A stretch of 64,000 bases of DNA, from contig CAZVYK010000001.1 of the NCBI GenBank assembly GCA_964630915.1, positions 915,050-979,049 of the forward strand, written 5' to 3'. The DNA comes from an uncultured Caldisericales bacterium. Lineage in GTDB: Bacteria > Caldisericota > Caldisericia > Caldisericales > Caldisericaceae. Shown piece after piece: positions 1 through 46,490 of this stretch. Within the stretch, counting starts at the first letter, position 1; the number at the start of each line of letters is the position of its first letter. The notes below the pieces were generated by a model. The model ran no database searches. It was not told the origin of the DNA and saw only the letters and a list, made by a program, of their open reading frames with translations. Position numbers and translations under genes: made by a program.

Positions 1-1734
1 ACGGTGAACTCTCCTCTTCCCAATGGGACAGTAATCAACAACACTGTCTCAATTGGCTCTTCAGAAACGGGTCCCGTAACTGATACAGAGGAAACGATAG
101 TAACGAGTACCACTCCTTCAATAGTAACTTCAAAGACTCCCGATACACAGACACTTGTCTTGGGAAGCGTCATAACATGGACAATAAGAGCAACAAACAA
201 CGGCACAGCGGTTCTTACAAACGTAAGAATTGTTGACATCTTACCGATCTACTTAATGTACGTCGGCACAAACTCAATTACCCTTACAGGAACAGGCACA
301 AGAACTTCTGTGATAAATCCTGTATACGGCAGCATGGGAACGATCACATGGGGTGAATGGACACTGAGTCCTGGTGCAACAATCACCATAAGCTTCAATG
401 TGACAACAATACCGGGTGCCCCGATAGGGACTTACACAAACAGGGCTTATACAACGAGCAATGAATACACTTCAGGACAAGACACAGCTTCCGTTAACAT
501 TTACGAGATTTACATACCACCTACTCCACCAACGCCTCCCACGCCACCAACTCCACCTCCTGCTCCACCCGAAATCCCTGAGATTGAATTTGAAAAGAAC
601 GGACCTGCAGAAGCTTACTGGGGAGAAACGGTAAAATACACGATAACCCTTAACAACATTGGCCCTTATGTTACTAACGTCGTGATTTACGACTACTTGC
701 CTCCTCAGGCAACTTTTGTTGATGCCTCTCCTGTTTACAAGTACGATGAAGCCACGAATACGGTAACCTGGAAGTATGACGATATTTTAAGCCAGGACGT
801 AAAGGAACTCTGGGTCAAGGTAGTGCTTAAGGGCGAGTGCGGTGCAACTGCAAAGAACAAAGCGGTTGTGAACGCTGATTATCTCCCCGAAATCCTTGTT
901 TCTGAAGTTGAGACAAAGATTCTTTGTGAAGTAGTCTACCATCAAAACTTCTTCTCAGGTTACCCCGACAAGACTTATAAGCCAGAAAGACCCGTTTCAA
1001 GAGCAGAAGTAGCTTCATCGCTTGGAAGAGCACTTGGGCTTCCTTACCTTGAGTACGGCGTTGACGTCAATAGCCAGACGTTCCCTGATGTCTCGCCTAA
1101 GTTCTGGGCTTATGGAAACATAGAGGCAGCTTTCAGGGAGAAGCTTGTTTTGGGATATCCCAACGGAACTTACGGGCCTAACAGGTTTATTACAAGGGCA
1201 GAAGTTGCGATGATATTCTTTAGACTCCTGAATCTCAAGCCTGAGTACCCGTCAAAGCCAACGTTTAAAGATTTAAGTGCATCTCACTGGGCATATGGAG
1301 CGGTTGAAGCAATAGCAAAGAAGGGAATCATTCTTGGGTACCCGGATGGCACGTTCAAGCCTGATCAGTACATAACAAGAGCTGAATATGTCACTGTTGC
1401 ATGCAAGAGTCTGTTTAGAAGAGGACCATTTAAGAATGGTATTACAAGCAATCCTTATCCAGACATCACACAAAATCACTGGGCGTATGACTACATTATG
1501 GAAGCTTCTGTGCCTCACCTGGTGGTCAACCCTGAAAGACTTGAAAACCTCATAATTATCCCGAGCAAGAAAATTCCTCTGTACTCAGAAAAATCCTATT
1601 CAAAGATAATAATACCTCAATTAGGAGAAGTTGTTGTTGCTATTGTGCCTGTTGATGGGCTAAACCCTGATGGAACGGACCCTAAGGAAAGATCAGTTAC
1701 CGTGAGGATCATAGTGAAAGGCGGCTTGCCGTAG
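1..1734 (+). CDS. Cell-surface protein, 5'-truncated at the window edge: DUF11-like repeat region, PT-rich linker, three C-terminal SLH (S-layer homology) repeats
   Basis: ORF 4-1734 is open to the window start. Linker PTPPTPPTPPTPPPAPP. Three ~55-aa repeats (FPDVSPKFWAYGNIEAA.., FKDLSASHWAYGAVEAI.., YPDITQNHWAYDYIMEA..) with ITRAE motifs typical of SLH domains. Confidence 0.75.
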   Translation, partial: TVNSPLPNGTVINNTVSIGSSETGPVTDTEETIVTSTTPSIVTSKTPDTQTLVLGSVITWTIRATNNGTAVLTNVRIVDILPIYLMYVGTNSITLTGTGTRTSVINPVYGSMGTITWGEWTLSPGATITISFNVTTIPGAPIGTYTNRAYTTSNEYTSGQDTASVNIYEIYIPPTPPTPPTPPTPPPAPPEIPEIEFEKNGPAEAYWGETVKYTITLNNIGPYVTNVVIYDYLPPQATFVDASPVYKYDEATNTVTWKYDDILSQDVKELWVKVVLKGECGATAKNKAVVNADYLPEILVSEVETKILCEVVYHQNFFSGYPDKTYKPERPVSRAEVASSLGRALGLPYLEYGVDVNSQTFPDVSPKFWAYGNIEAAFREKLVLGYPNGTYGPNRFITRAEVAMIFFRLLNLKPEYPSKPTFKDLSASHWAYGAVEAIAKKGIILGYPDGTFKPDQYITRAEYVTVACKSLFRRGPFKNGITSNPYPDITQNHWAYDYIMEASVPHLVVNPERLENLIIIPSKKIPLYSEKSYSKIIIPQLGEVVVAIVPVDGLNPDGTDPKERSVTVRIIVKGGLP

Positions 1735-1749
1735 ATTAAAGCATTTGAA

Positions 1750-1772
1750 GGGGGCGAAAGCCCCCTTTTTTT
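1750..1772 (+). terminator. Rho-independent terminator
   Basis: GGGGGC-GAAA-GCCCCC hairpin followed by T7, immediately after the stop at 1734. Confidence 0.7.
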
Positions 1773-1792
1773 GTTTAACTTGTTAACACCTA

Positions 1793-1821
1793 TTGACAAG
1801 AATCAAAATTTTATGTAAAAT
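1793..1821 (+). promoter_or_regulatory. sigma70-like promoter (TTGACA-17 nt-TAAAAT)
   Basis: TTGACA at 1793-1798 and TAAAAT at 1816-1821 with a 17-nt spacer, ~30 nt upstream of the tandem structured elements. Confidence 0.5.
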
Positions 1822-1852
1822 TATAAGCAGTATAAAACTGAAGAGCATTTGA

Positions 1853-1936
1853 GTACCAAGAGGCGTTGACCTTCAGATCCCAATGTGGGCGTCAGGGGAC
1901 TGAAGCGAGCCAGTGACGCAACCGGCTTGGTTTTTT
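1853..1936 (+). promoter_or_regulatory. Candidate structured leader RNA element, copy 1 of 2
   Basis: Conserved 5' flank GTACCAAGAGGCGTTGA and 3' flank GAGCCAGTGACGCAACCGGCTTGG + T-tract. Central hairpin CTTCAG..CTGAAG. CCAAG/CTTGG can close an outer helix. Confidence 0.4.
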
Positions 1937-1965
1937 GCGTTTAAAGGCAAGACCAGGCAAGAAAG

Positions 1966-2049
1966 GTACCAAGAGGCGTTGAATCCTCGCACCCTAAATG
2001 GGCGCCATGGAGCGAGGATGAGCCAGTGGCGCAACCGGCTTGGTTTTAT
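1966..2049 (+). promoter_or_regulatory. Candidate structured leader RNA element, copy 2 of 2
   Basis: Same conserved flanks as copy 1 (GTACCAAGAGGCGTTGA ... GAGCCAGTGGCGCAACCGGCTTGGTTTT). Central hairpin replaced by ATCCTCGC..GCGAGGAT, a compensatory change. 113-nt period. Confidence 0.4.
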
Positions 2050-2117
2050 TATTCTGGGGATTTTCCCGGGCCGTCGCCCGCTGCACGCTGATGTAGCGCC
2101 CGAAAGGGAGAGGGAAA

Positions 2118-3521
2118 ATGACCAGAACAAAGACAGCGATTGTAAGTACGTTGATCAGAGTCGTACTTGTCTTTGTGCTCTTTGTTGCTCTTTTCTTGCC
2201 TGTAACTGTTATTCCTCAACAAAGATCATTAGAGCCATCTTACATCAAGATTGATTTTGATGATGACGTAAGTCAACTTGTGCCAGCGGGTGTTTTAGTA
2301 AGAAAGAGTAATAATAGTGTTGCTCGCGCTGCATCTGAGATTGTCAAACCGGTTGTTGGAACACTCAAGCCACTGGTCTTTCTTGTAGACTTTCCCGATT
2401 TGAGAGCAAACCATACAATTTCAGCTCCTGAATTCTATCAGGAACTGCTTTTCAAAGAGGGCAACAGAAGCCTGCATGATTTTTACCTTGAGAACTCTTA
2501 TGGAAAGCTTGAAGTCAAAGGTAGCGTATTTGGAAAGTGGGTTACGGCTCCTATGAATTACGTTTATTATGAAGGCAACTACAGGGGAATGGGCTTCTAT
2601 CCGAACAACACACAGAGGCTTGTAGAGGATATCATAAAGATAGTGGATCGAGAGATTGACTTCTCGCAGTATGATGGAAACAGTGACGGACTTGTAGATG
2701 GCTTATTCGTAATCTACGCAGGTCAGAGGGCTGATACAAAGAACCCTGGTAGGATTTACCCGCATCAGTGGAGTATAAGTCCCGTGAAGAAAGATGGAGT
2801 AGTCATTTCCTCGTATACTGTCATTCCTGAATACAGAAGCGTGCCTGGAGATACTACAATCGGAGTCTTCTGCCACGAATTTGGCCACATTATTGGGGCG
2901 GTTGATATGTACGACCTAGACGGGCTTGTTTACCAGAGTTATGACGGAAAAAGGTCTTACGGTCTTGGGAAGTGGAGCGTGATGGCATATGGTACATATG
3001 GTACAACTAAACTTTTCGGAGATACACCTTCTCATTTTGACGCGTGGCACAAGATTAAGCTTGGATGGCTAGAGCCCGTTGTGATCAAAGAATCAGTGAG
3101 CAACATCGAATTAAAAGCAGTTGGGAGAAAAGACGGAACAGTCTTGAAAATTGTCAATCCCGAAAATCCTTGCGAATACTTCCTCATTGAATACAGGAAG
3201 AAGAGCGGTTTTAACAGCTCGATTCCTGGCGAGGGAATTCTCATCTATCACATTGATGAGAGAATGGACTCAAATAATTATGCATGGACGCCTGGCACTA
3301 ATTCCGACAAGCACTATCTGGTTTCAGTTGTCCAGGCGGATGGCAAGTGGGACCTCGAGAATTGCATGAATCTTGGGGACAAAGGAGATGTTTACTACTC
3401 GAGCGCATCTTTTGAGATTTCGAATATCCAATACTACGGCGCCAAACAATCGGCTTTCACTATTAAGAATGTTGAAGTTGAGGAAGGCTTTGTAAAGCTT
3501 GATTTAGTAATGCAAAATTAA
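2118..3521 (+). CDS. Secreted M6-family (immune inhibitor A-like) zinc metalloprotease
   Basis: N-terminal TM/signal segment. HEFGHIIGAVDMYD zinc-binding motif (HEXXH..D) characteristic of peptidase M6. Strong RBS GGGAGAGGG before the ATG. Confidence 0.7.
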   Translation: MTRTKTAIVSTLIRVVLVFVLFVALFLPVTVIPQQRSLEPSYIKIDFDDDVSQLVPAGVLVRKSNNSVARAASEIVKPVVGTLKPLVFLVDFPDLRANHTISAPEFYQELLFKEGNRSLHDFYLENSYGKLEVKGSVFGKWVTAPMNYVYYEGNYRGMGFYPNNTQRLVEDIIKIVDREIDFSQYDGNSDGLVDGLFVIYAGQRADTKNPGRIYPHQWSISPVKKDGVVISSYTVIPEYRSVPGDTTIGVFCHEFGHIIGAVDMYDLDGLVYQSYDGKRSYGLGKWSVMAYGTYGTTKLFGDTPSHFDAWHKIKLGWLEPVVIKESVSNIELKAVGRKDGTVLKIVNPENPCEYFLIEYRKKSGFNSSIPGEGILIYHIDERMDSNNYAWTPGTNSDKHYLVSVVQADGKWDLENCMNLGDKGDVYYSSASFEISNIQYYGAKQSAFTIKNVEVEEGFVKLDLVMQN

Positions 3522-3553
3522 ATAGCATAACTGTTTTCCCCTCCTAAACATAG

Positions 3554-3583
3554 GGCAGGCTTCCCCAGCCTGCCTTCTTTCTT
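3554..3583. terminator. Bidirectional terminator hairpin between convergent genes
   Basis: GGCAGGC-TTCCCCA-GCCTGCC followed by TTCTTTCTT, between the stop at 3521 (+) and the stop at 3590 (-). Confidence 0.55.
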
Positions 3584-3589
3584 GATGGC

Positions 3590-4606
3590 TTAGTGTTGCA
3601 AGGGGAGCTCAACTCGATTTTCTATTCTGTGCCTTTCAATCGCTATTTCCAGTATGTCGTTTACCAGGTCATCGTATGTTTTGCCGTAAAGCTTGTATAT
3701 TCTTGGGAAATCAGAGTGCTCCGGATCAAGTCCAGGCAGTGGGTTGACTTCAAGAACGAAGGGATTTCCATTTTCGTCTACTCTTAGGTCAAATCTTGCA
3801 ACATCTCTGTTTCTCAAGGCAATGAATGCTCTCACACACATTTCCTGTATTTCAGCCAGTTTTTCATCAGGCAGCCTTGCGGGTAGGTAGTAGTTGGCTT
3901 TTGAAGAATAGTCTGTCTTAAATTTATAGGTCTGTATGCCAAATGCTGATGCCCTAAGCTCTCTCTTTGAGAGTGGAGAGAAGTCTATTTCCATAGGAGG
4001 CAAAGCCCTTGGCGGGAAGTTGCCCATTACTCCGACAGTGATCTCTATTCCTTCGATGAATTCTTCCACAAGAACAGGCGTGCGGAATTTCTGGAAGAGC
4101 TCCAAAATGTTTTTTCTAGCCTCTTCCTCGCTGCGACAGACTGATTTTGCGGTGATTCCCATACTTGAACCTTCAAATGGAGGTTTTACAATGACGGGGA
4201 ATTTCACTCCCTCAATGTGAATTCCACCGTTCGGCCGCACAACAGTGTAGTTAGGAGTAGGAACATTTGCAAATTTCAGCACATCCTTAGTCATTATCTT
4301 GTCCATTGATATTGCAAGAGAAAGAACATTCGATCCAGTGTATGGTATTTTCAGCTCGTCAAGTATCGCAGGAACAAAAGCCTCTCTGTGAGGGCCATTT
4401 TTCCCCTCCGCAATGTTGAAAACAAACTGAGGCCTGTCAAGAACAAGCGAGTAGAATAGAAGAGGAGAGGTTGCCTCATAGAGTTTTACCCTGTGACCTC
4501 TTGATTCAAGAGCCTTTACGACTGCTTCGATAGTCTCTGGCCTGTCAAATTCAGTCTCTCTGAGACTGTCGCTTCTCTTAAGATTGTGAGTCAAACCAAT
4601 TCTCAT
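3590..4606 (-). CDS. ddl: D-alanine--D-alanine ligase family ATP-grasp enzyme
   Basis: MRIGLTHN start. Motifs EGSSMGITAKSV and EEFIEGIEITVGVMGN match the Ddl ATP-grasp signature (GSSVGI / EEFIxGxEIxVxVLGN). Start chosen at the internal Met 11 of the track ORF. Confidence 0.6.
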   Translation of the reverse strand: MRIGLTHNLKRSDSLRETEFDRPETIEAVVKALESRGHRVKLYEATSPLLFYSLVLDRPQFVFNIAEGKNGPHREAFVPAILDELKIPYTGSNVLSLAISMDKIMTKDVLKFANVPTPNYTVVRPNGGIHIEGVKFPVIVKPPFEGSSMGITAKSVCRSEEEARKNILELFQKFRTPVLVEEFIEGIEITVGVMGNFPPRALPPMEIDFSPLSKRELRASAFGIQTYKFKTDYSSKANYYLPARLPDEKLAEIQEMCVRAFIALRNRDVARFDLRVDENGNPFVLEVNPLPGLDPEHSDFPRIYKLYGKTYDDLVNDILEIAIERHRIENRVELPLQH

Positions 4607-4662
4607 CGTTTTTACAATTGAAAATAATAGCAACAATTAGTTTTTAGTCAAGTTTTTGAATT

Positions 4663-5145
4663 CTAAGGATTAAAGAATACAAAAGGGTTTGACTTTAGAA
4701 TTTCATCAACTTCTCGCCAGCCCTCATAGAAAGCATAGTTGTACCTTGGAGGTAATGCAAACACATAGAGATTATTTCTTCCAAGCTCTGTTGGAGGAAA
4801 AGGTGCTGCGCTTACAGATAGAGTTTCGCCTTCGATCATTTTCCACTGTTCTATCGTGAAAACCATTATTGGTATGTCCTGATAGGGTTTCTCTCCCGTC
4901 CAGTTGGGATTTCTGATGATGATCACAGGTCCTTTGTCCGTTGGCATGTCTGTTGCTTCGTCAATCCTGTATCCTAGCCAGTAGTTCTCAAGTACCGAAA
5001 ATCCTTTCCAGTTCCGCGGAAGTGAAATTGAAAAGCCGTAGAATTCGTTCTTGTACCTGACAGCTGAGTTTGCTAAGTACGCCACGACTGCCAATATGCA
5101 CAAGACAAGCAGTACGGATAATGAAAGCAATACTTTCTTTCTCAT
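4663..5145 (-). CDS. Hypothetical membrane-anchored or secreted protein
   Basis: N-terminal hydrophobic helix MRKKVLLSLSVLLVLCILAVVAYLA. No recognisable motifs. Confidence 0.4.
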   Translation of the reverse strand: MRKKVLLSLSVLLVLCILAVVAYLANSAVRYKNEFYGFSISLPRNWKGFSVLENYWLGYRIDEATDMPTDKGPVIIIRNPNWTGEKPYQDIPIMVFTIEQWKMIEGETLSVSAAPFPPTELGRNNLYVFALPPRYNYAFYEGWREVDEILKSNPFVFFNP

Positions 5146-5207
5146 ACAATCAATCATACACAAACTGCAGAAATTGCAAAGGAAAAGGTTTAAAGGCGTA
5201 ATGCAAC

Positions 5208-5627
5208 CTATTTGTGGTATTTCTCTCCCCTCATAATTGTAAATGCTCTGTATAGCTGCTCGAGAATGATTAGCCTTGCAAGTTCATGCGGGAAAGTCAT
5301 CTCCGAAAGGCTCAAAACAGCGTCACCGCTCGCAACAAAGTCTGCAGGGAAGCCCTCTGCTCCGCCAACAAAAAAAGCAAGGTCCTTCTGTGAGCGTGCA
5401 ATGTGATTTTCAAGAAAACCCGCAAATTCAAGAGAGTGCATTTGCCTACCCGTTCTATCAAGAATGACATTGAAATTTTCCTTTTTATGACTGAGTAGTA
5501 TGGACTCTTCGGTAAGCTCGAAAACATCTATGTTTATGTAGTGCCGAAGCCTTGAAATATAGTCATCTGCTGCCTGCTTAAAGTATCCCTTTTTGAGTTT
5601 GCCAACAGCATAAATCTTTATCTTCAC
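5208..5627 (-). CDS. rlmH: 23S rRNA (pseudouridine1915-N3)-methyltransferase RlmH (SPOUT family)
   Basis: 139 aa, MKIKIYAVGKLKKGYFKQAADDYISRL..., C-terminal FPHELARLIILEQLYRAFTIMRGEKYHK typical of RlmH/YbeA. Confidence 0.8.
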   Translation of the reverse strand: MKIKIYAVGKLKKGYFKQAADDYISRLRHYINIDVFELTEESILLSHKKENFNVILDRTGRQMHSLEFAGFLENHIARSQKDLAFFVGGAEGFPADFVASGDAVLSLSEMTFPHELARLIILEQLYRAFTIMRGEKYHK

Positions 5628-5684
5628 AGCACATTCTCCATTTTCATTCTATATCAAAAAGCTCTTTTCCATTAAAATAGAAGG

Positions 5685-6668
5685 GTGAAGATAGAGGGCT
5701 GTAGTGTTGTCTTTGAATGGAAGGGAAATGCGCGCAGAGTCTTCGTCGGAGGGGATTTCAACAACTTTCGAAGAGAGCCATTAAGGAAAGTAAGCGACAA
5801 TTACTGGATCCTGGAAAAGACTCTTCCAGAAGACGGCAGGTTTGACTATCTTTTCTTTGTTGACGGAAAACAAAAGCTCGACCCTGAAAACCCTTTGACG
5901 CAGGCAGGAGGATTTGGGGTAAAGTCGGAACTCAGAATGCCAGGATTCTCGTATCCGGAATACGTGCTTGAGAAATGCCCTGAAGAAGAGGAAGGCAAAG
6001 TATCGGAGTTTTCTTTATTTGACCCTGTATTCAATTACAATAGGAAAGTGATTATCTATGAGCCGAAGAGCAATGCAAGTAGAGCCTGTGAGCTTCTGAT
6101 CTTTCAAGACGGGACTGACTACGTGAATTACGCTTCAGCTGTGAAATGCCTCGACAACATGATCCGGGCGAAAAAGATACCTCCTGTCTATGCAGTTTTC
6201 GCAGAGGTAAGAGGAAGGACAAGGGGCAGGGAGTACACTAACTACAGAAAATACTCATTGTTTCTTAAGCAGGTCTTGGTAGATGAATTCAGGAAAAGGA
6301 CGGGAGGAGAACCAGAAAGGATCACTTTGATCGGAGCTTCTCTTGGAGGACATGTTTCTCTAAGCTGTGCCCTTGCATTTCCGGATCTTTTCATGAACGT
6401 TATCTCGCAGTCAGGGGCATTCTTTACCAAGCTACCAGAACCAAATGTAGCTTACAGGGGCAAGTTTTACATGAGCTGCGGAGTTTACGAGACGGCTCTT
6501 GGGGGAAGATTTGACCTTCTGAAAATGAACAGAGAAGTTAGTGCTAAGCTTAAAGAAAAAGGCCTAAAAGTGAAGTACAGAGAGTTTAATGACGGGCACT
6601 CCTACGGAAACTGGAAGGCGTGCCTTCCAGAGGCTCTGGAGTTTGTTTTGGCGGAGGCGCAATGGTAA
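5685..6668 (+). CDS. Esterase (putative-esterase/enterochelin-esterase fold) with N-terminal CBM48/E-set-like domain
   Basis: N-terminal VVFEWKGNARRVFVGGDFNNF (AMPK-beta/glycogen-binding-like). C-terminal alpha/beta hydrolase with GASLGGHVSL nucleophile elbow. Confidence 0.6.
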   Translation: MKIEGCSVVFEWKGNARRVFVGGDFNNFRREPLRKVSDNYWILEKTLPEDGRFDYLFFVDGKQKLDPENPLTQAGGFGVKSELRMPGFSYPEYVLEKCPEEEEGKVSEFSLFDPVFNYNRKVIIYEPKSNASRACELLIFQDGTDYVNYASAVKCLDNMIRAKKIPPVYAVFAEVRGRTRGREYTNYRKYSLFLKQVLVDEFRKRTGGEPERITLIGASLGGHVSLSCALAFPDLFMNVISQSGAFFTKLPEPNVAYRGKFYMSCGVYETALGGRFDLLKMNREVSAKLKEKGLKVKYREFNDGHSYGNWKACLPEALEFVLAEAQW

Positions 6669-7843
6669 CAAGAAGGCTGAAGAAGGAGGACCTTGAGCGC
6701 GAGCTCATCGCGATTGGGGCTGACCCGAGGTCGCACTTTTATTTCTTGAGGAAGTCTGAAGTGGTAATCATAAAGCTGCACGATGTGGATGCAAGAGGTG
6801 CGAACATACTTAAGCAGGAGTTCCTTAGTGCTGGTGGGGATGTTGCAGTGCACATGGATGTTGCAGGATTCAGGAAAGACAAAACTGACTGCATCGTCAT
6901 AGGAATGCCCAAGACTTATGCTACTGTCCTTGAAAAGCTGGAAAGGGAACCTTATTTTGGCTTGAAAAAGGTTTGCCAGGCTCTCAAAAACGCACTCGAG
7001 GAAAAGACCTCAGGGACAATGAAGATCGGAGGGAAAGTATTCGACTTTCAGAAGGATGTTTACATAATGGGCATCCTCAATGTTACGCCTGATTCGTTCT
7101 CTGACGGCGGAAAATTCCTTTCTGTTGAAGATGCTTTTGAGCACGCAAGACAACTTATCGAGGAAGGTGCGGACATCATAGACATCGGAGGCGAGTCAAC
7201 AAGGCCTGGTGCAGAAGCCGTGGACGAGCAGGTTGAAATCGAGAGGATCATACCCGTAATCTCGAAGATCAGGGAGATTTCTGATATTACTATCTCCGTT
7301 GACACTTACAAGAGCAGTGTCGCCAGGGCCGCCTTGAAGAACGGAGCCGACCTTGTAAATGATATAAGTGGTTTGAGGTTTGACCATAAAATGGTGGAGG
7401 TTGTAAGAGAGTTCAGCGTGCCTGTTGTGGTAATGCACATAAAAGGCACTCCCCGCGACATGCAGAAGAACCCGCAGTATTCAGATCTTATGAAGGAGCT
7501 TCTTGAGTACTTCGATGAAAGGATCTCGTCGCTTGAAAAAGCCGGTATAGAGCAGTTGATTATAGACCCCGGAATCGGATTCGGGAAAAGGTATGAGGAC
7601 AACCTGCGCATAATCAACAACCTCCATGAGTTTGCCGCTTTTGGAAAGCCAATCCTTATTGGTGCTTCAAGAAAGTCTTTTATTGGAACAGCCCTCGATG
7701 GACGAGAAGTGACTGAAAGGCTTTATGGGACTCTGGCTGCAAATGCCATTGCCGTATTGAACGGGGCTTCCATAATAAGGGTTCACGATATAAAACCGCA
7801 CAGGGACCTTTTGAAGATCATAAAGGCGGTGAAAAGTGGGTAG
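6662..7843 (+). CDS. folP: Dihydropteroate synthase with ~130-aa N-terminal extension
   Basis: IMGILNVTPDSFSDGG, ADIIDIGGESTRPG and GASRKSFIG pterin-binding motifs. ATG at 6662 overlaps the upstream stop (ATGGTAA). Confidence 0.85.
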   Translation: MVTRRLKKEDLERELIAIGADPRSHFYFLRKSEVVIIKLHDVDARGANILKQEFLSAGGDVAVHMDVAGFRKDKTDCIVIGMPKTYATVLEKLEREPYFGLKKVCQALKNALEEKTSGTMKIGGKVFDFQKDVYIMGILNVTPDSFSDGGKFLSVEDAFEHARQLIEEGADIIDIGGESTRPGAEAVDEQVEIERIIPVISKIREISDITISVDTYKSSVARAALKNGADLVNDISGLRFDHKMVEVVREFSVPVVVMHIKGTPRDMQKNPQYSDLMKELLEYFDERISSLEKAGIEQLIIDPGIGFGKRYEDNLRIINNLHEFAAFGKPILIGASRKSFIGTALDGREVTERLYGTLAANAIAVLNGASIIRVHDIKPHRDLLKIIKAVKSG

Positions 7844-42921: not shown

Positions 42922-43731
42922 CTATCCCAACGCTACGTCAAGAAACATCATTATGGCAAAGCCAATCAGTGCACCTATTGTGGAAAGGTCCGTTTCTTTG
43001 CCCTGCTGGGATTCGGGAATAAGCTCTTCGACAACGACATATATCATGGCACCAGCCGCGAATGCTAACGCGTATGGAAGAATGTTTTTAACGTGTGCAA
43101 CAAGATAAGCACCAAGAATGCCTCCTATGACTTCAACCAGACCTGAAAGCTGCCCCAATGTGAAACTTTTTCCTATTGAAATGCCTTCTCTTCGAAGCGG
43201 GATTGATATCGCTGCACCCTCGGGGAAGTTCTGGAGTCCTATACCAACTGTAAGAGCGATGGCTGAGCCGAGAGTTGAAATCGATGGAGAATTTGCAAGA
43301 GTCCCGAAGCTTACTCCAACAGCAAAGCCCTCGGGTATGTTGTGAAGCGTCACGGCAAGCACGAGCAGAATACTTCTCTGGAGGGATGTTTTCACTCCCT
43401 CTGCCTTTTCAATCTCGAGTCCGAGGTGGAGGTGCGGGAGAACCTTGTCAACAAGGTACAGGAAACCGCCGCCAAGCGAAAAGCCAAATACCGCGGGAAG
43501 CCAGGGAGCCATTCCTATCTGTGAAGCCATTTTGATTGATGGCTCAAGGAGCGACCAGAAGCTTGCAGCTATCATCACTCCTGAAGCAAATCCGAGCATT
43601 GCGTTCAAGATTCTTATGTTTATCTGTTTAAAGAAGAAGACCATCGCTGACCCTAGAGCTGTCACGCCCCAGGTGAAGAGGGTTCCAAAAGATGCCAGTA
43701 GTACAGGGTTTAGCTTTAGTAGAGAGTTCAT
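42922..43731 (-). CDS. ZIP-family metal (Zn/Fe) transporter, ZupT-like
   Basis: 8 TM helices, HNIPEG and LHN..EGFAVG motifs. ATGA overlap with the upstream ABC ATPase. Confidence 0.8.
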   Translation of the reverse strand: MNSLLKLNPVLLASFGTLFTWGVTALGSAMVFFFKQINIRILNAMLGFASGVMIAASFWSLLEPSIKMASQIGMAPWLPAVFGFSLGGGFLYLVDKVLPHLHLGLEIEKAEGVKTSLQRSILLVLAVTLHNIPEGFAVGVSFGTLANSPSISTLGSAIALTVGIGLQNFPEGAAISIPLRREGISIGKSFTLGQLSGLVEVIGGILGAYLVAHVKNILPYALAFAAGAMIYVVVEELIPESQQGKETDLSTIGALIGFAIMMFLDVALG

Positions 43732-44477
43732 CTTACTTCATTATACGGGTTTCCGCTTATGATATATTCAAGTGCTTGCTCAGAGAGCGTTGCGAACTTC
43801 TTGCTTGAAAGAGTTGAGAGGCTTCTCGGGTGAGGAAAGTTAATTTCAATGGTCTTGCATATTGTGCCCGGATATCCCTGGATGATAACGACGATATCAG
43901 AAAGAAAGAGCGCCTCCTCAATATCGTGCGTCACCATAATTGTTGAAAGGTTCCACTTTTCTCGCGTTGCCTCAAGGTAGAGCCAGAGCTTTCTTCTATT
44001 GAGAGCATCAACTGCACCAAACGGTTCATCAAGAAGCAGGAGTTGAGTGTCTGTAAGGAGTGTCCTGAGAAGCGCGGCTCTCTGGTACATTCCTCCCGAA
44101 AGGACGGAAGGAAACCTGTCTTCAAATCCTTTAAGGCCAAACTCCTGTAGAAGTCTCGAAACTCTTTTTTTTGCTTCATTTTCGGGCACTCCTCTTATGA
44201 GAAGAGGGATTTCAAGGTTTTTAAGGACGGTAAACCACGGAAGGAGCACTCCCTTCTGCGGCATATATCCTGTTGCTCCCTGTGGGCGAGTTATAGTTCC
44301 CTCGTAAGGGATAAGCCCTGCAATTGCCTTGAGCAAGGTTGTTTTCCCGGAGCCGGAAGGTCCTGCAATGGCAAGATGTTTGCCGTAAGGGAGGGTAAAA
44401 GAGATGTCCCTTACGGCAAGGAAACCCTCATAATAAACATTTACGTTTTTTATCTCTATCTCTTTTATTTCCTGCAT
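43728..44477 (-). CDS. ABC transporter ATP-binding protein (NitT/TauT family; ThiZ-like)
   Basis: GPSGSGKTT, LSGGMYQRAAL, LLLDEPFGAVD. Confidence 0.85.
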   Translation of the reverse strand: MQEIKEIEIKNVNVYYEGFLAVRDISFTLPYGKHLAIAGPSGSGKTTLLKAIAGLIPYEGTITRPQGATGYMPQKGVLLPWFTVLKNLEIPLLIRGVPENEAKKRVSRLLQEFGLKGFEDRFPSVLSGGMYQRAALLRTLLTDTQLLLLDEPFGAVDALNRRKLWLYLEATREKWNLSTIMVTHDIEEALFLSDIVVIIQGYPGTICKTIEINFPHPRSLSTLSSKKFATLSEQALEYIISGNPYNEVR

Positions 44478-45457
44478 GGTATAAACTCGTTCGTGTAGAG
44501 GGTTTTTATGTTCTCGGGTTTTGATTTAAGAAGTCCTGCCTGGAACATGAAATCGGTGAAAGTATTCCACACTTCGTCCTTCATAATGCCAAAGCAATTT
44601 GCGTCACTTATATACTCTTTACTTATCCACGCCTGTGACTTTTCGACAAGTTCTCTGTTAAGCTCCGGAGCATACTTCAAGAGTATATTAGCTGCCTCTT
44701 CCGGATGTGCCGCTGCATAAGTGTATCCTTCCGAGATTGCCTCAGTGAAAGCCATAACAACCTCCGGTTTATCTTTCACCATCGTTGTGTTCGTTATGAA
44801 AAGGGGAGTGTAGTGATCAAACTGAGGGTAGTAATCTGCAATTCTATAGAAAGCGGAATCTAATCCTCTTATTTCTGAATCAATTCCTTCCCACGCGTAA
44901 TAGATCCAGGTGAAATCGTAAAGCTTATTTACAAGTCCCGTTATCTGGTCAAAAACGCCCAGCTGCACCATTTTGAGGTTATCTGGATTCTTCCCGTGGT
45001 CTTTCATAATGAACCTGACGATTGCGTTTTCCCACTCCGTGCCCCATCCTCCGTACGTCTTTCCCTCGAAGTCATCGGGTGATTTTATGCTGCTTTCCTT
45101 AAGCCATATAAAGCCCGAAGTGTCATGCTGGAGAATCGCGGAAATTGCAATTAAAGGTGCTGCTTCGTTAATGACATACTGGGTGAGTGCTTCCTGGAAG
45201 GAAATTCCAAAATCTGCCTTTCCAGCGCTTACTGCCTGTTCTGGCCAGACTTCTGCCGGTTGTACGATCTCCACCTCGAGATTCCTTTCCTCGAAATAGC
45301 CCTTCTCAAGCGCAACGTAAATTCCTGTGTGGTTTGTATTTGGCGTCCAGTCGAGCATGAGAGTTACCTTTGTAGGTTTCTCTAGGTGGGCTTGCTTTCT
45401 ACACCCCGCTGTCAGGACAATAGCCAGAACGAGGAAAATCAAAAGAACTTTTTTCAT
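44465..45457 (-). CDS. ABC substrate-binding lipoprotein, NMT1/THI5-like (ThiY-like)
   Basis: Lipobox LTAGC. NMT1/THI5 fold region, ~330 aa. Confidence 0.75.
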   Translation of the reverse strand: MKKVLLIFLVLAIVLTAGCRKQAHLEKPTKVTLMLDWTPNTNHTGIYVALEKGYFEERNLEVEIVQPAEVWPEQAVSAGKADFGISFQEALTQYVINEAAPLIAISAILQHDTSGFIWLKESSIKSPDDFEGKTYGGWGTEWENAIVRFIMKDHGKNPDNLKMVQLGVFDQITGLVNKLYDFTWIYYAWEGIDSEIRGLDSAFYRIADYYPQFDHYTPLFITNTTMVKDKPEVVMAFTEAISEGYTYAAAHPEEAANILLKYAPELNRELVEKSQAWISKEYISDANCFGIMKDEVWNTFTDFMFQAGLLKSKPENIKTLYTNEFIPCRK

Positions 45458-46281
45458 TACTTACCACCTCCCTGCCATTTTGTCATTTTACTTTTCACAA
45501 GGAGAGTCATTCCCCAGGTTGCAAGGCTGAAAATTATGACTATAAGGGTTCCCGCAAATACCTGAGGTAGCTGAAATGAAGAGAAAGACCTCTTGATATA
45601 AAGGCCCATTCCCTCACTTGTGCCCATCCACTCCGCGGTTAGTGCTCCAAGTACGGCGTATGGAGAGGTAATTTCTATGCCCGTGAGCGTATAGGAAAGA
45701 GTATGCGGCAAGATAACATATCGCATGATCTGCAACCTCTTTGCACCCATTGCCTTCATTACGTCTACCATATCCCTGTCGACGGTTCTCAAGCCAAGAA
45801 GAGTGTTCACGGTTATAGGAAAAAATGTTGCCCACACGACGACTCCAATTTTGGGACCCGCCCCGAATCCGAACCATAGGATGATGAGAGGGGCTATTGC
45901 TATGGCAGGAGTTGACTGCGAGACTACAAGGATAGGATAGATGAGGTCCTCAACTGGTTTTATTAGGTGCATGATAGCCGCAAAGAGCACTCCCACAACG
46001 ATTGAAAGAGTGAAACCAAGATAGGTTACGCTCAGCGTTGAAGACAAATGCCTGAGAATAACCGACCTCTGCTCTACTAGTATCCAGAATACATTGTCAG
46101 GTGACGGAAGGATGTAGCTCTGAACTAGTCTCAGGTGGCTTGTCGCAAGATACCATGCGAGGATGAAAATGACAAAGGAAAGAATCTTCAGGATGAAGGG
46201 CCTGTTTCTCAGAAGGTATGCAGTAGATATTACGAAAAGAGCAAATCCTGTAATGGATGGCAAATGCGTTCTGAGGAGCAT
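45457..46281 (-). CDS. ABC permease (NitT/TauT family; ThiX-like)
   Basis: Track ORF runs to 46437 but would overlap the riboswitch aptamer. GGGAG-7 nt-ATG (MLLRTHLPS) at 46281 sits just after the riboswitch terminator. Start could also be a TTG further upstream. Confidence 0.7.
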   Translation of the reverse strand: MLLRTHLPSITGFALFVISTAYLLRNRPFILKILSFVIFILAWYLATSHLRLVQSYILPSPDNVFWILVEQRSVILRHLSSTLSVTYLGFTLSIVVGVLFAAIMHLIKPVEDLIYPILVVSQSTPAIAIAPLIILWFGFGAGPKIGVVVWATFFPITVNTLLGLRTVDRDMVDVMKAMGAKRLQIMRYVILPHTLSYTLTGIEITSPYAVLGALTAEWMGTSEGMGLYIKRSFSSFQLPQVFAGTLIVIIFSLATWGMTLLVKSKMTKWQGGGK

Positions 46282-46334
46282 CAGGTACACTCCCAGAAAG
46301 AGCACGAAAAGCACAAAAAGCACAGAGTTCTTTC

Positions 46335-46475
46335 TCAAAACAAAAACCTCCCTAAATCGGGGAGGGTACAGGGTTCTATCCGAGTACCATCTCCCTACGC
46401 CGGTATTACCCGGGTCAGGTTCCAGGGGTCGGACCATGAGGTCCCTCTCAGCCGCACGACTCCCCCGTGGTTACT
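46335..46475 (-). promoter_or_regulatory. TPP (THI-box) riboswitch with intrinsic-terminator expression platform
   Basis: Minus-strand RNA CCACGGGGGAGUCGUGCGGCUGAGAGGGACC..GACCCCUGGAACCUGACCCGGGUAAUACCGGCGUAGGGAG matches the THI-element consensus (GGGG.GC..GCUGAGA..ACCC..GAACCUGAUCUGGAUAAUGCCAGCGUAGGGA). Followed by CCUCCC-CGAUUUA-GGGAGG + U-run. Confidence 0.85.
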
Positions 46476-46490
46476 TATATTATAAGAAAT

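Follow-up and report, generated by a model that had tools for sequence, protein, structure and literature searches.

The window analysed here is a 64,000-nucleotide (64-kb) stretch of contig CAZVYK010000001.1 from an uncultured Caldisericales bacterium. It contains a gene for an M6 (immune inhibitor A-like) zinc metalloprotease of 467 amino acids, preceded on the same strand by the gene of an adhesin-like surface protein with S-layer homology (SLH) domains. The protease gene has a long leader with two repeated RNA elements, which lie on the sense strand between a promoter-like site and the start of the protease open reading frame (ORF), i.e., in a cis-regulatory position. A previous sequence-only reading had described a promoter followed by two elements at a 113-nt period, with conserved flanks and differing self-complementary stems, each ending in a U-tract, and had interpreted them as a possible new tandem riboswitch or protein-binding leader. 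The features it described are all present, and the elements are indeed arranged as a tandem of riboswitches; the proposed novelty does not hold. The leader almost certainly holds two complete tandem aptamers of the class II riboswitch for cyclic di-GMP (c-di-GMP-II), each of which presumably binds c-di-GMP. The pair is a new example of a known riboswitch class rather than a new RNA class, tandem c-di-GMP-II riboswitches having already been catalogued (PMC9481103), and the locus is possibly among the 59 published doublets.

Identity of the two RNA elements

The whole window was scanned against Rfam 15 at gathering thresholds, which gave three matches in all. Both elements match c-di-GMP-II (RF01786; gathering score 53.5), copy 1 with 54.6 bits (E 2.6e-9) and copy 2 with 63.1 bits (E 1e-11), and both span positions 1-84 of the 84 in the model. 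Copy 1 is thus only 1.1 bits over the gathering score. With E values this low, chance does not account for the repeat. With our own covariance model, R1, the two copies score 97.2 and 100 bits, respectively. In the cmscan alignments, the conserved segments GAGGCG, UGA, UGGGC, GAGCCAGUG and GCAACCGGC are kept in both copies, and the canonical family is the best clan member for both, outscoring the c-di-GMP-II-GAG variant (RF03169). A permissive Rfam rescan of the leader returned no family besides c-di-GMP-II, and scans of the 64 kb with Rfam and R1 found no c-di-GMP-II element other than the tandem pair. The sequence-only reading had reported no match to the c-di-GMP consensus, probably because class I only was compared. 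A confident match to a known Rfam family is the outcome that it had itself named as refuting novelty.

The elements are about 87 nt long, and their 5' and 3' flanks are identical between the copies. The central stems differ yet remain complementary: CUUCAG pairs with CUGAAG in copy 1, and AUCCUCGC with GCGAGGAU in copy 2. The pseudoknot has likewise changed on both sides, GCGUC with GACGC in copy 1 corresponding to GCGCC with GGCGC in copy 2, so that pairing is compensated. The positions of all helices are given in Table 1.

Support for this structure was obtained from 27 distinct related aptamers, using the class II structure including the pseudoknot and 500 shuffles. Paired cells amount to 85.9%, compared with 77.0% for shuffled partners and 36-49% when the partners are slid by 1-3 columns. 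There are 21 pairs changed on both sides, a number reached by none of the 500 shuffles. All eight pairs of P3 show compensatory changes, the P2 pair 13:67 is seen as GC, AU and UA, and the pseudoknot is 100% paired across the 27 sequences, with double changes in four of its five pairs. The earlier inference of a structured RNA under selection, with covarying stems, in the protease leader is borne out. The six core pairs of P1 (ACCAAG/CUUGGU) behave differently: they are the same in both copies and show no compensatory change among the tandem aptamers, departures being confined to unpaired cells in three proximal copies. Being invariant, the P1 core is uninformative for covariation.

Layout of the leader and its neighbouring genes

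Table 1. Features of the protease leader and of other parts of the window (positions within the window).
Feature	Position	Strand	Remarks
Upstream SLH surface (adhesin-like) protein, C-terminal part	4-1734	+	Pfam: three SLH + DUF11; start beyond window edge
Intrinsic terminator of the upstream SLH surface-protein gene	1747-1768	+	9-bp stem with 6 G-C pairs, GAAA loop, then T8
Sigma-70-type promoter-like site TTGACA-17-TAAAAT	1793-1821	+	11 of 12 consensus positions; TTGACA / TATAAT-like pair equally placed in homologous leaders
Distal c-di-GMP-II aptamer, copy 1	1850-1936	+	Rfam RF01786 and own model R1
Copy 1, P1	1855-1860/1926-1931	+
Copy 1, P2	1862-1864/1909-1911	+
Copy 1, P3	1871-1876/1900-1905	+
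Copy 1, pseudoknot	1889-1893/1915-1919	+	GCGUC with GACGC
Copy 1, U-tract	1931-1936	+	starts inside last P1 pair
Linker box AAGACCAGGC	1949-1958	+	complementary to GCUUGGUUUU
Proximal c-di-GMP-II aptamer, copy 2	1963-2049	+	Rfam RF01786 and own model R1
Copy 2, P1	1968-1973/2039-2044	+
Copy 2, P2	1975-1977/2022-2024	+
Copy 2, P3	1983-1990/2012-2019	+
Copy 2, pseudoknot	2002-2006/2028-2032	+	GCGCC with GGCGC
Copy 2, U-run	2044-2047	+	then AUUAUU; U-rich tract 2044-2053
Structured block over ribosome-binding site and start codon	2052-2127	+	fold z-score -4.4
Block, outer helix	2052-2057/2122-2127	+
Block, anti-Shine-Dalgarno with Shine-Dalgarno	2060-2067/2112-2119	+	AUUUUCCC with GGGAAAAU
Block, conserved core	2078-2100	+	small hairpin CGCU 2086-2089 / AGCG 2095-2098
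M6 (immune inhibitor A-like) zinc metalloprotease gene	2118-3521	+	467 aa; Pfam PF05547 (Peptidase_M6), E 3.5e-16
ORFs crossing the aptamers	1913-2254; 1873-2130	+; -	probably gene-calling artefacts
TPP riboswitch	46374-46476	-	74.9 bits
Operon headed by the TPP riboswitch	42922-46437	-

An intrinsic terminator lies just 5' of the promoter-like site, which indicates that the leader begins an independent transcription unit. The protease carries the HEFGH zinc motif (in the peptide FCHEFGHI), and its hydrophobic N-terminus is consistent with export. When homologous leaders are compared side by side, they share a common order: promoter, copy 1, U-run, a linker with the box, copy 2 and a second U-run. 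This is followed by a pyrimidine stretch matching the Shine-Dalgarno (SD) sequence, the conserved block C(C/U)RCUGCACGCUGAUGURGCGCC, the SD sequence and the start codon. The linker between the two aptamers is 26 nt long in the window.

No ORF lies between the two aptamers. The two leader ORFs of the window cross the aptamers and look spurious; a comparable ORF, at 3634-3843, is seen in locus L084, where a 69-aa gene is included in the public record. All of these probably result from gene calling across a structured leader.

Distribution and age of the pair

No identical entry for the M6 protease was found in the protein database. The nearest relative shares 96% identity with it, followed by a group at 50-64%. 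Those of the related loci that come from genomes with an organism name belong to metagenome-assembled genomes (MAGs) of Caldiserica/Caldisericota and to one MAG labelled Bacteroidia; the others are metagenome contigs. The aptamer pair is found directly upstream of the protease, by Rfam and R1, in every examined relative whose M6 protease is at least about 50% identical (loci L001-L004, L081-L091 and L212-L219). The conservation and covariation in homologous leaders, which the sequence-only reading had proposed as a check, are present in this group. R1 found no aptamer at 76 loci with more distant M6 proteases of other phyla. A metagenome scan with the 14-mer CGCAACCGGCTTGG gave, among the matches listed, single occurrences only, and no aptamer in the 100 loci screened (L192-L211 were outside the screen), the pattern being too unspecific.

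The two copies can be told apart in all lineages. In Rfam scores, the proximal copy is always the higher (61-73 bits, against 46-55 bits for the distal copy). The distal copies all share GGGCGUC/GUGACGC and UGAC in the alignment, and nearly all proximal copies share GGGCGCC/GUGGCGC and UGAA, the exceptions being L003, with a still compensated GGGCGCU/GUAGCGC, and L088, with UGAG. On these sequence features, distal and proximal copies form two orthologous lineages, which makes the duplication older than the divergence of the lineages examined, both copies having been kept since.

Some distal copies deviate from the canonical form. In L003 (232-318), L004 (1925-2011) and L216 (862-948), GCU replaces GCG after P2 and UAAUG replaces CAGUG, while in L002 (3260-3346) and L214 (1811-1897), GCACCC replaces GCAACC. 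The GAG variant is the better match only for the distal copies of L003 and L004 and for a further aptamer upstream in L088. In the lineages with a deviating distal copy, copy 1 may have changed its specificity or may be decaying; copy 1 of the window is canonical.

The surroundings of the protease (window 3590-7843) are also partly conserved. The order of the protease gene, a D-Ala-D-Ala ligase gene on the opposite strand and a small hypothetical gene is retained in L084, L085 and L091, whose proteases are only about 56-64% identical to that of the window. The next genes, encoding a SPOUT methyltransferase, an esterase with a carbohydrate-binding module and a pterin-binding enzyme, are kept in L084 and/or L085 and not in L091. 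The conserved gene order supports a common Caldisericota-type origin of the window.

U-tracts and the linker box

P1 adjoins the U-tract in each of the 26 tandem aptamers that were examined. Its core, of only 6 bp, passes directly into the U-tract, and neither aptamer is followed by a separate terminator stem. Only two hairpins end at the U-runs: P1 of the aptamer itself and a small one embedded in it, (C/U)GAGCC...GGCUUG, the latter with energies of -10.6 kcal/mol in copy 1 and -8.2 kcal/mol in copy 2 of the window. Where P2 covaries, this small hairpin is weakened, to -5.2 kcal/mol in copy 1 of L217 and -2.8 kcal/mol in copy 1 of L003. No hairpin downstream of either aptamer, including the one formed by the linker box, is followed by a U-tract, i.e., the classical ON design, with the 3' arm of the terminator placed downstream of the aptamer, was not found. 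Without ligand, the aptamer fold and the alternative to it differ in most aptamers by no more than about 2-4 kcal/mol, as expected for a switch. The terminator/antiterminator role of the U-tracts that had been suggested earlier remains plausible.

The linker between the aptamers contains a short box, AAGACCAGGC in the window and AAAACCAAGC-like elsewhere. Its complement, GCUUGGUUUU, comprises the P1 3' strand and the U-tract of copy 1 (1925-1934), and the identical sequence ends copy 2 (2038-2047). The duplex has an energy of -13.9 kcal/mol in the window and of -13.2 to -16.1 kcal/mol across ten leaders. In all ten leaders with a separate box the pairing beats dinucleotide shuffles, the observed value being reached by 0-23 of 300. 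Substitutions in the box are A-to-G changes opposite U, so that pairing is kept through G.U pairs. L217 and L219 have a linker of only 8-9 nt, and here AAACCAAG, the 5' P1 strand of copy 2, stands in for the box. With a linker this short, a shared expression platform, as in cooperative dual-aptamer riboswitches of the glycine type, is conceivable in these two loci. Cross-pairing of the two aptamer units is made possible by their identical P1 strands and by the box. Since P1 is shared and invariant, and the box can pair with the 3' strand of copy 1 or of copy 2, the units probably do not act independently.

A structured block over the ribosome-binding site

Downstream of the second U-run, the leader folds into a block in which an anti-SD sequence pairs with the SD sequence, enclosed by an outer helix and containing a small conserved hairpin (Table 1). 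No Rfam match was found for this block. The anti-SD and SD sequences covary between lineages, as AUUUUCCC/GGGAAAAU, CUUCUCCU/AGGAGAAG and UCUCUCUC/GAGAGAGA, and their pairing beats shuffles in some leaders only, namely those of L085, L217, L003, L084 and the window. The core hairpin, CGCY-5 nt-RGYG, has a loop-closing pair that is U-A, U.G or C-G depending on the lineage.

A coupling of this block to the state of aptamer 2 was considered in two forms. In all 12 leaders, forcing copy 2 into the bound fold, blocking it or leaving it free makes no difference to the probability that the SD sequence and the start codon are unpaired. SD accessibility is thus independent of the state of aptamer 2, and the structure at 2052-2127 behaves as an autonomous module. 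Translational coupling was accordingly rejected as a thermodynamic mechanism. A long helix joining the 3' half of aptamer 2 to the stretch that follows the anti-SD sequence, at -19 to -28 kcal/mol, looked strong but is no better than dinucleotide shuffles, and is retained only as a conjecture. The CCRCUG sequence of the conserved block is complementary to CAGUGG of aptamer 2, a pairing without statistical support. For the region from aptamer 2 to the start codon, RNAalifold returns the aptamer fold together with long-range pairs to the CACGCU block, which arise from conservation and not from covariation and were set aside.

Direction of regulation

With the aptamers identified, we infer a mechanism and its sign from the leader sequences. 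Termination promoted by c-di-GMP (OFF) is favoured over the ON alternative, and we give it about an even chance of being correct. Binding of c-di-GMP would lock P1, and the locked P1 with its abutting U-tract would halt transcription; two such checkpoints in series would sharpen the response. In unbound copy 1, the P1 3' strand and the U-tract would pair instead with the linker box, giving an antiterminator-like hairpin that lacks a following U-tract. The role of the box would fall, in L217 and L219, to the 5' P1 strand of copy 2, so that copy 2 would provide the terminator hairpin of copy 1. The structure that hides the SD sequence would form a separate, ligand-independent layer. At high c-di-GMP, i.e., in the sessile state, an OFF switch would shut down the secreted protease whose gene adjoins that of the SLH-anchored, adhesin-like protein.

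Several considerations favour this direction. A locked P1 beside a U-tract can hardly avoid terminating in a clade that uses canonical hairpin-plus-U terminators. The box hairpin has the geometry of an antiterminator, since it offers the P1 3' strand an alternative partner and has no U-tract behind it. The small embedded hairpin, which would have to serve as the terminator of an ON switch, is not preserved where P2 covaries. An invariant P1 core in the presence of a covarying P3 is what would be expected if the P1 strands serve several alternative pairings. In L088, the adhesin-like gene has an aptamer of its own with a predicted ON design, and separate promoters and switches of different build in two neighbouring genes suggest opposite signs. 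Finally, c-di-GMP riboswitches of Clostridioides difficile act in opposite directions on an adhesin (CD2831) and on the protease encoded beside it (ZmpI).

A number of points weigh against an OFF switch. All four class II riboswitches that have been characterised experimentally are ON switches (PMC6200980). The small hairpin located just before each U-tract could be a terminator of the apo state, which would give the opposite sign. Mutations in L002, L214 and L091 weaken the outer P1 of copy 2 while sparing the small hairpin, and one of them improves it. Moreover, the U-tract follows the aptamer without any spacer, which leaves a very short time window for a ligand-dependent decision.

These points define the strongest competing explanation, in which the same tandem aptamers are ON switches. 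In the apo state, the embedded hairpin, (C/U)GAGCC-12 nt-GGCUUG, would terminate transcription together with the U-tract. Because the 3' strand of P2 and the beginning of that of P1 form its arms, the ligand would lock both into P2 and P1 and permit read-through, and two weak terminators in series would cut leakage. Besides the uniform precedent, this explanation is favoured by the energy of the hairpin in both window copies, by a stem that stops one nucleotide before the U-run, by the P1 3'-strand mutations of copy 2 in L002, L214 and L091, which lie outside the hairpin or strengthen it, and by the closing C of the hairpin, kept in nine of 13 distal copies. However, the ligand-locked P1 abuts the same U-tract and should terminate at least equally well, so that read-through in the bound state is not obvious. 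The hairpin also has a 12-nt loop and is broken in copy 1 of L217, where P2 covaries; in several lineages its energy is as weak as -2.8, -5.2 and -6.3 kcal/mol. An ON switch gives the linker box no clear role, and it would have the adhesin and the protease induced together despite their separate promoters and differently built switches. On balance, we consider ON control unlikely, while still a serious contender.

A second alternative is that the U-runs are not terminators and that control is post-transcriptional. Aptamer 2 would then compete kinetically with the box CCRCUG / CC..RRGCCG over the closing of the anti-SD:SD helix, or mRNA decay would be under the control of the leader; the shared P1 and the linker box would let copy 1 influence copy 2, making an interlocked pair rather than independent switches. 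The covariation of anti-SD and SD sequences between lineages, and the five leaders in which their pairing beats shuffles, agree with this, as does the P1 core, identical in both copies and without compensatory change. The complementarity of CCRCUG to CAGUGG of copy 2 shows a compensatory change in L003 and L216 and is a perfect 7-mer in L217 and L219. Yet the duplexes between aptamer 2 and downstream sequences are no better than dinucleotide shuffles, equilibrium SD accessibility does not respond to aptamer 2 in any of the 12 leaders, and the presence of a U-run after both aptamers in every lineage is left unexplained. Post-transcriptional control thus appears improbable.

A new riboswitch class, a protein-binding leader or a mobile element, i.e., a miniature inverted-repeat transposable element or an insertion sequence end, is very improbable and effectively refuted: apart from the repeat itself and the narrow margin of copy 1 over the gathering score, nothing speaks for it, whereas both copies match the full c-di-GMP-II model including the conserved core nucleotides and the pseudoknot, and the repeats are direct sense-strand copies that occupy the orthologous position in every relative and occur, within the 64 kb, in this one leader only.

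Returning to c-di-GMP-promoted termination, a fuller form of this proposal can be put forward. It is an interlocked OFF device embedded in the aptamers, with P1 of each aptamer as the terminator stem. Whether copy 1 is bound would be signalled to the terminator of copy 2 through the box or, in L217 and L219, through the 5' P1 strand of copy 2. The target of repression would be a protease that frees the adjacent SLH adhesin, and the adhesin itself would be switched ON through a variant class II aptamer. With so many parts, this complete version is offered tentatively and is rather unlikely to hold in its entirety.

The adhesin/protease neighbourhood and known systems

The M6 protease gene stands beside an SLH surface-protein gene, as had been noted earlier, and this association is general: a gene for an SLH-anchored surface protein lies immediately upstream of the pair in all nine loci scanned, with DUF11, SdrD-B and SpaA-type repeats. 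In L088, the surface-protein gene (120-3593) encodes a 1157-aa SLH/DUF11/SdrD-B/SpaA protein and is preceded, at a distance of 16 nt, by a single aptamer of the c-di-GMP-II-GAG variant (16-103; 47.1 bits). The P1 3' strand of this aptamer contains CCUCC, an anti-SD sequence, and the SD sequence GGAGG follows 10 nt downstream, from which a translational ON design is predicted. An aptamer of the surface-protein gene's own is visible in L088 only; elsewhere, including in the window, the start of the gene is off the contig or masked (by N in L212).

Tandem c-di-GMP-II riboswitches are not without precedent. Fifty-nine doublets and nine triplets have been described, mostly before COG4932 surface-anchor genes in Paraclostridium (Sherlock et al. 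2022, PMC9481103), and were read as pseudo-cooperative devices that sharpen the dose response (PMC9481103). A 2025 survey found c-di-GMP riboswitches to be enriched in tandem arrangements (PMC12452182). Among the papers searched, none joins Caldiserica and riboswitches. As in the published doublets, two aptamers of the same class share one leader with no ORF between them, and a steeper response is expected. Here, however, the gene controlled encodes an M6 metalloprotease rather than a surface anchor, the phylum is a different one and the direction may be opposite (OFF). Compared with RF01786 in general, the match is full-length, with P1, P2 and P3, the conserved segments and a pseudoknot in which the P3 loop and the 3' junction covary. 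What sets the pair apart is the Caldisericota-like host and the 6-bp P1 core, identical in both copies and fused to the U-tract, with no separate terminator stem.

The closest functional parallel is found in C. difficile, where the adhesin CD2831 (class II, ON) and the adjacent protease CD2830/ZmpI (class I, OFF) are inversely controlled (PMC3649979, PMC11477304). In both cases, genes for a cell-wall-anchored, adhesin-like protein and a secreted zinc metalloprotease are adjacent, and each gene has its own c-di-GMP riboswitch leader, that of the surface gene being seen here in L088 only, with an ON design (compare CD2831/ZmpI-PPEP-1; PMC3649979, PMC11477304, PMC6200980). The proteases differ, M6 here and M34 in C. 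difficile, as do the anchors (SLH instead of sortase) and the protease leaders, which have two class II aptamers instead of one of class I. In the present module, cleavage of the neighbour and an opposite sign are conjecture. Other serial arrangements of same-ligand riboswitches in one leader are the triple-tandem c-di-GMP-I riboswitch Bc3-5 of Bacillus thuringiensis (PMC4759541) and tandem thiamine pyrophosphate (TPP) riboswitches. These belong to other aptamer classes and, unlike the present pair, each of their units has its own recognisable terminator hairpin.

Other features of the window

A TPP riboswitch on the opposite strand (Table 1) heads an operon encoding an ATP-binding cassette (ABC) permease, an NMT1/THI5-like binding protein, an ABC ATPase and a ZIP-family transporter. 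It looks like an ordinary uptake operon for a thiamine precursor. The listed ORF start at 46437 overlaps the TPP aptamer, and the true start of the first gene is probably further downstream. No ORF with a GGDEF motif was found in the window, which for a stretch of 64 kb is uninformative.

Implications

The result removes a false lead, that of a new riboswitch, and extends c-di-GMP-II riboswitches, and hence an RNA readout of c-di-GMP signalling, to the poorly studied and mostly uncultured Caldisericota. The M6 metalloprotease and the SLH adhesin-like gene would join the c-di-GMP-controlled modules of surface remodelling. The leader is compact and deeply conserved, with a U-tract fused to P1, an invariant P1 shared by both copies and a relay box, and is a test case for two questions: whether a class II riboswitch can be OFF, and whether tandem units can be wired together. 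If the interlocked OFF device is real, it would be the first OFF-acting class II c-di-GMP riboswitch, and Caldisericota would have a convergent counterpart of the C. difficile adhesin/ZmpI circuit.

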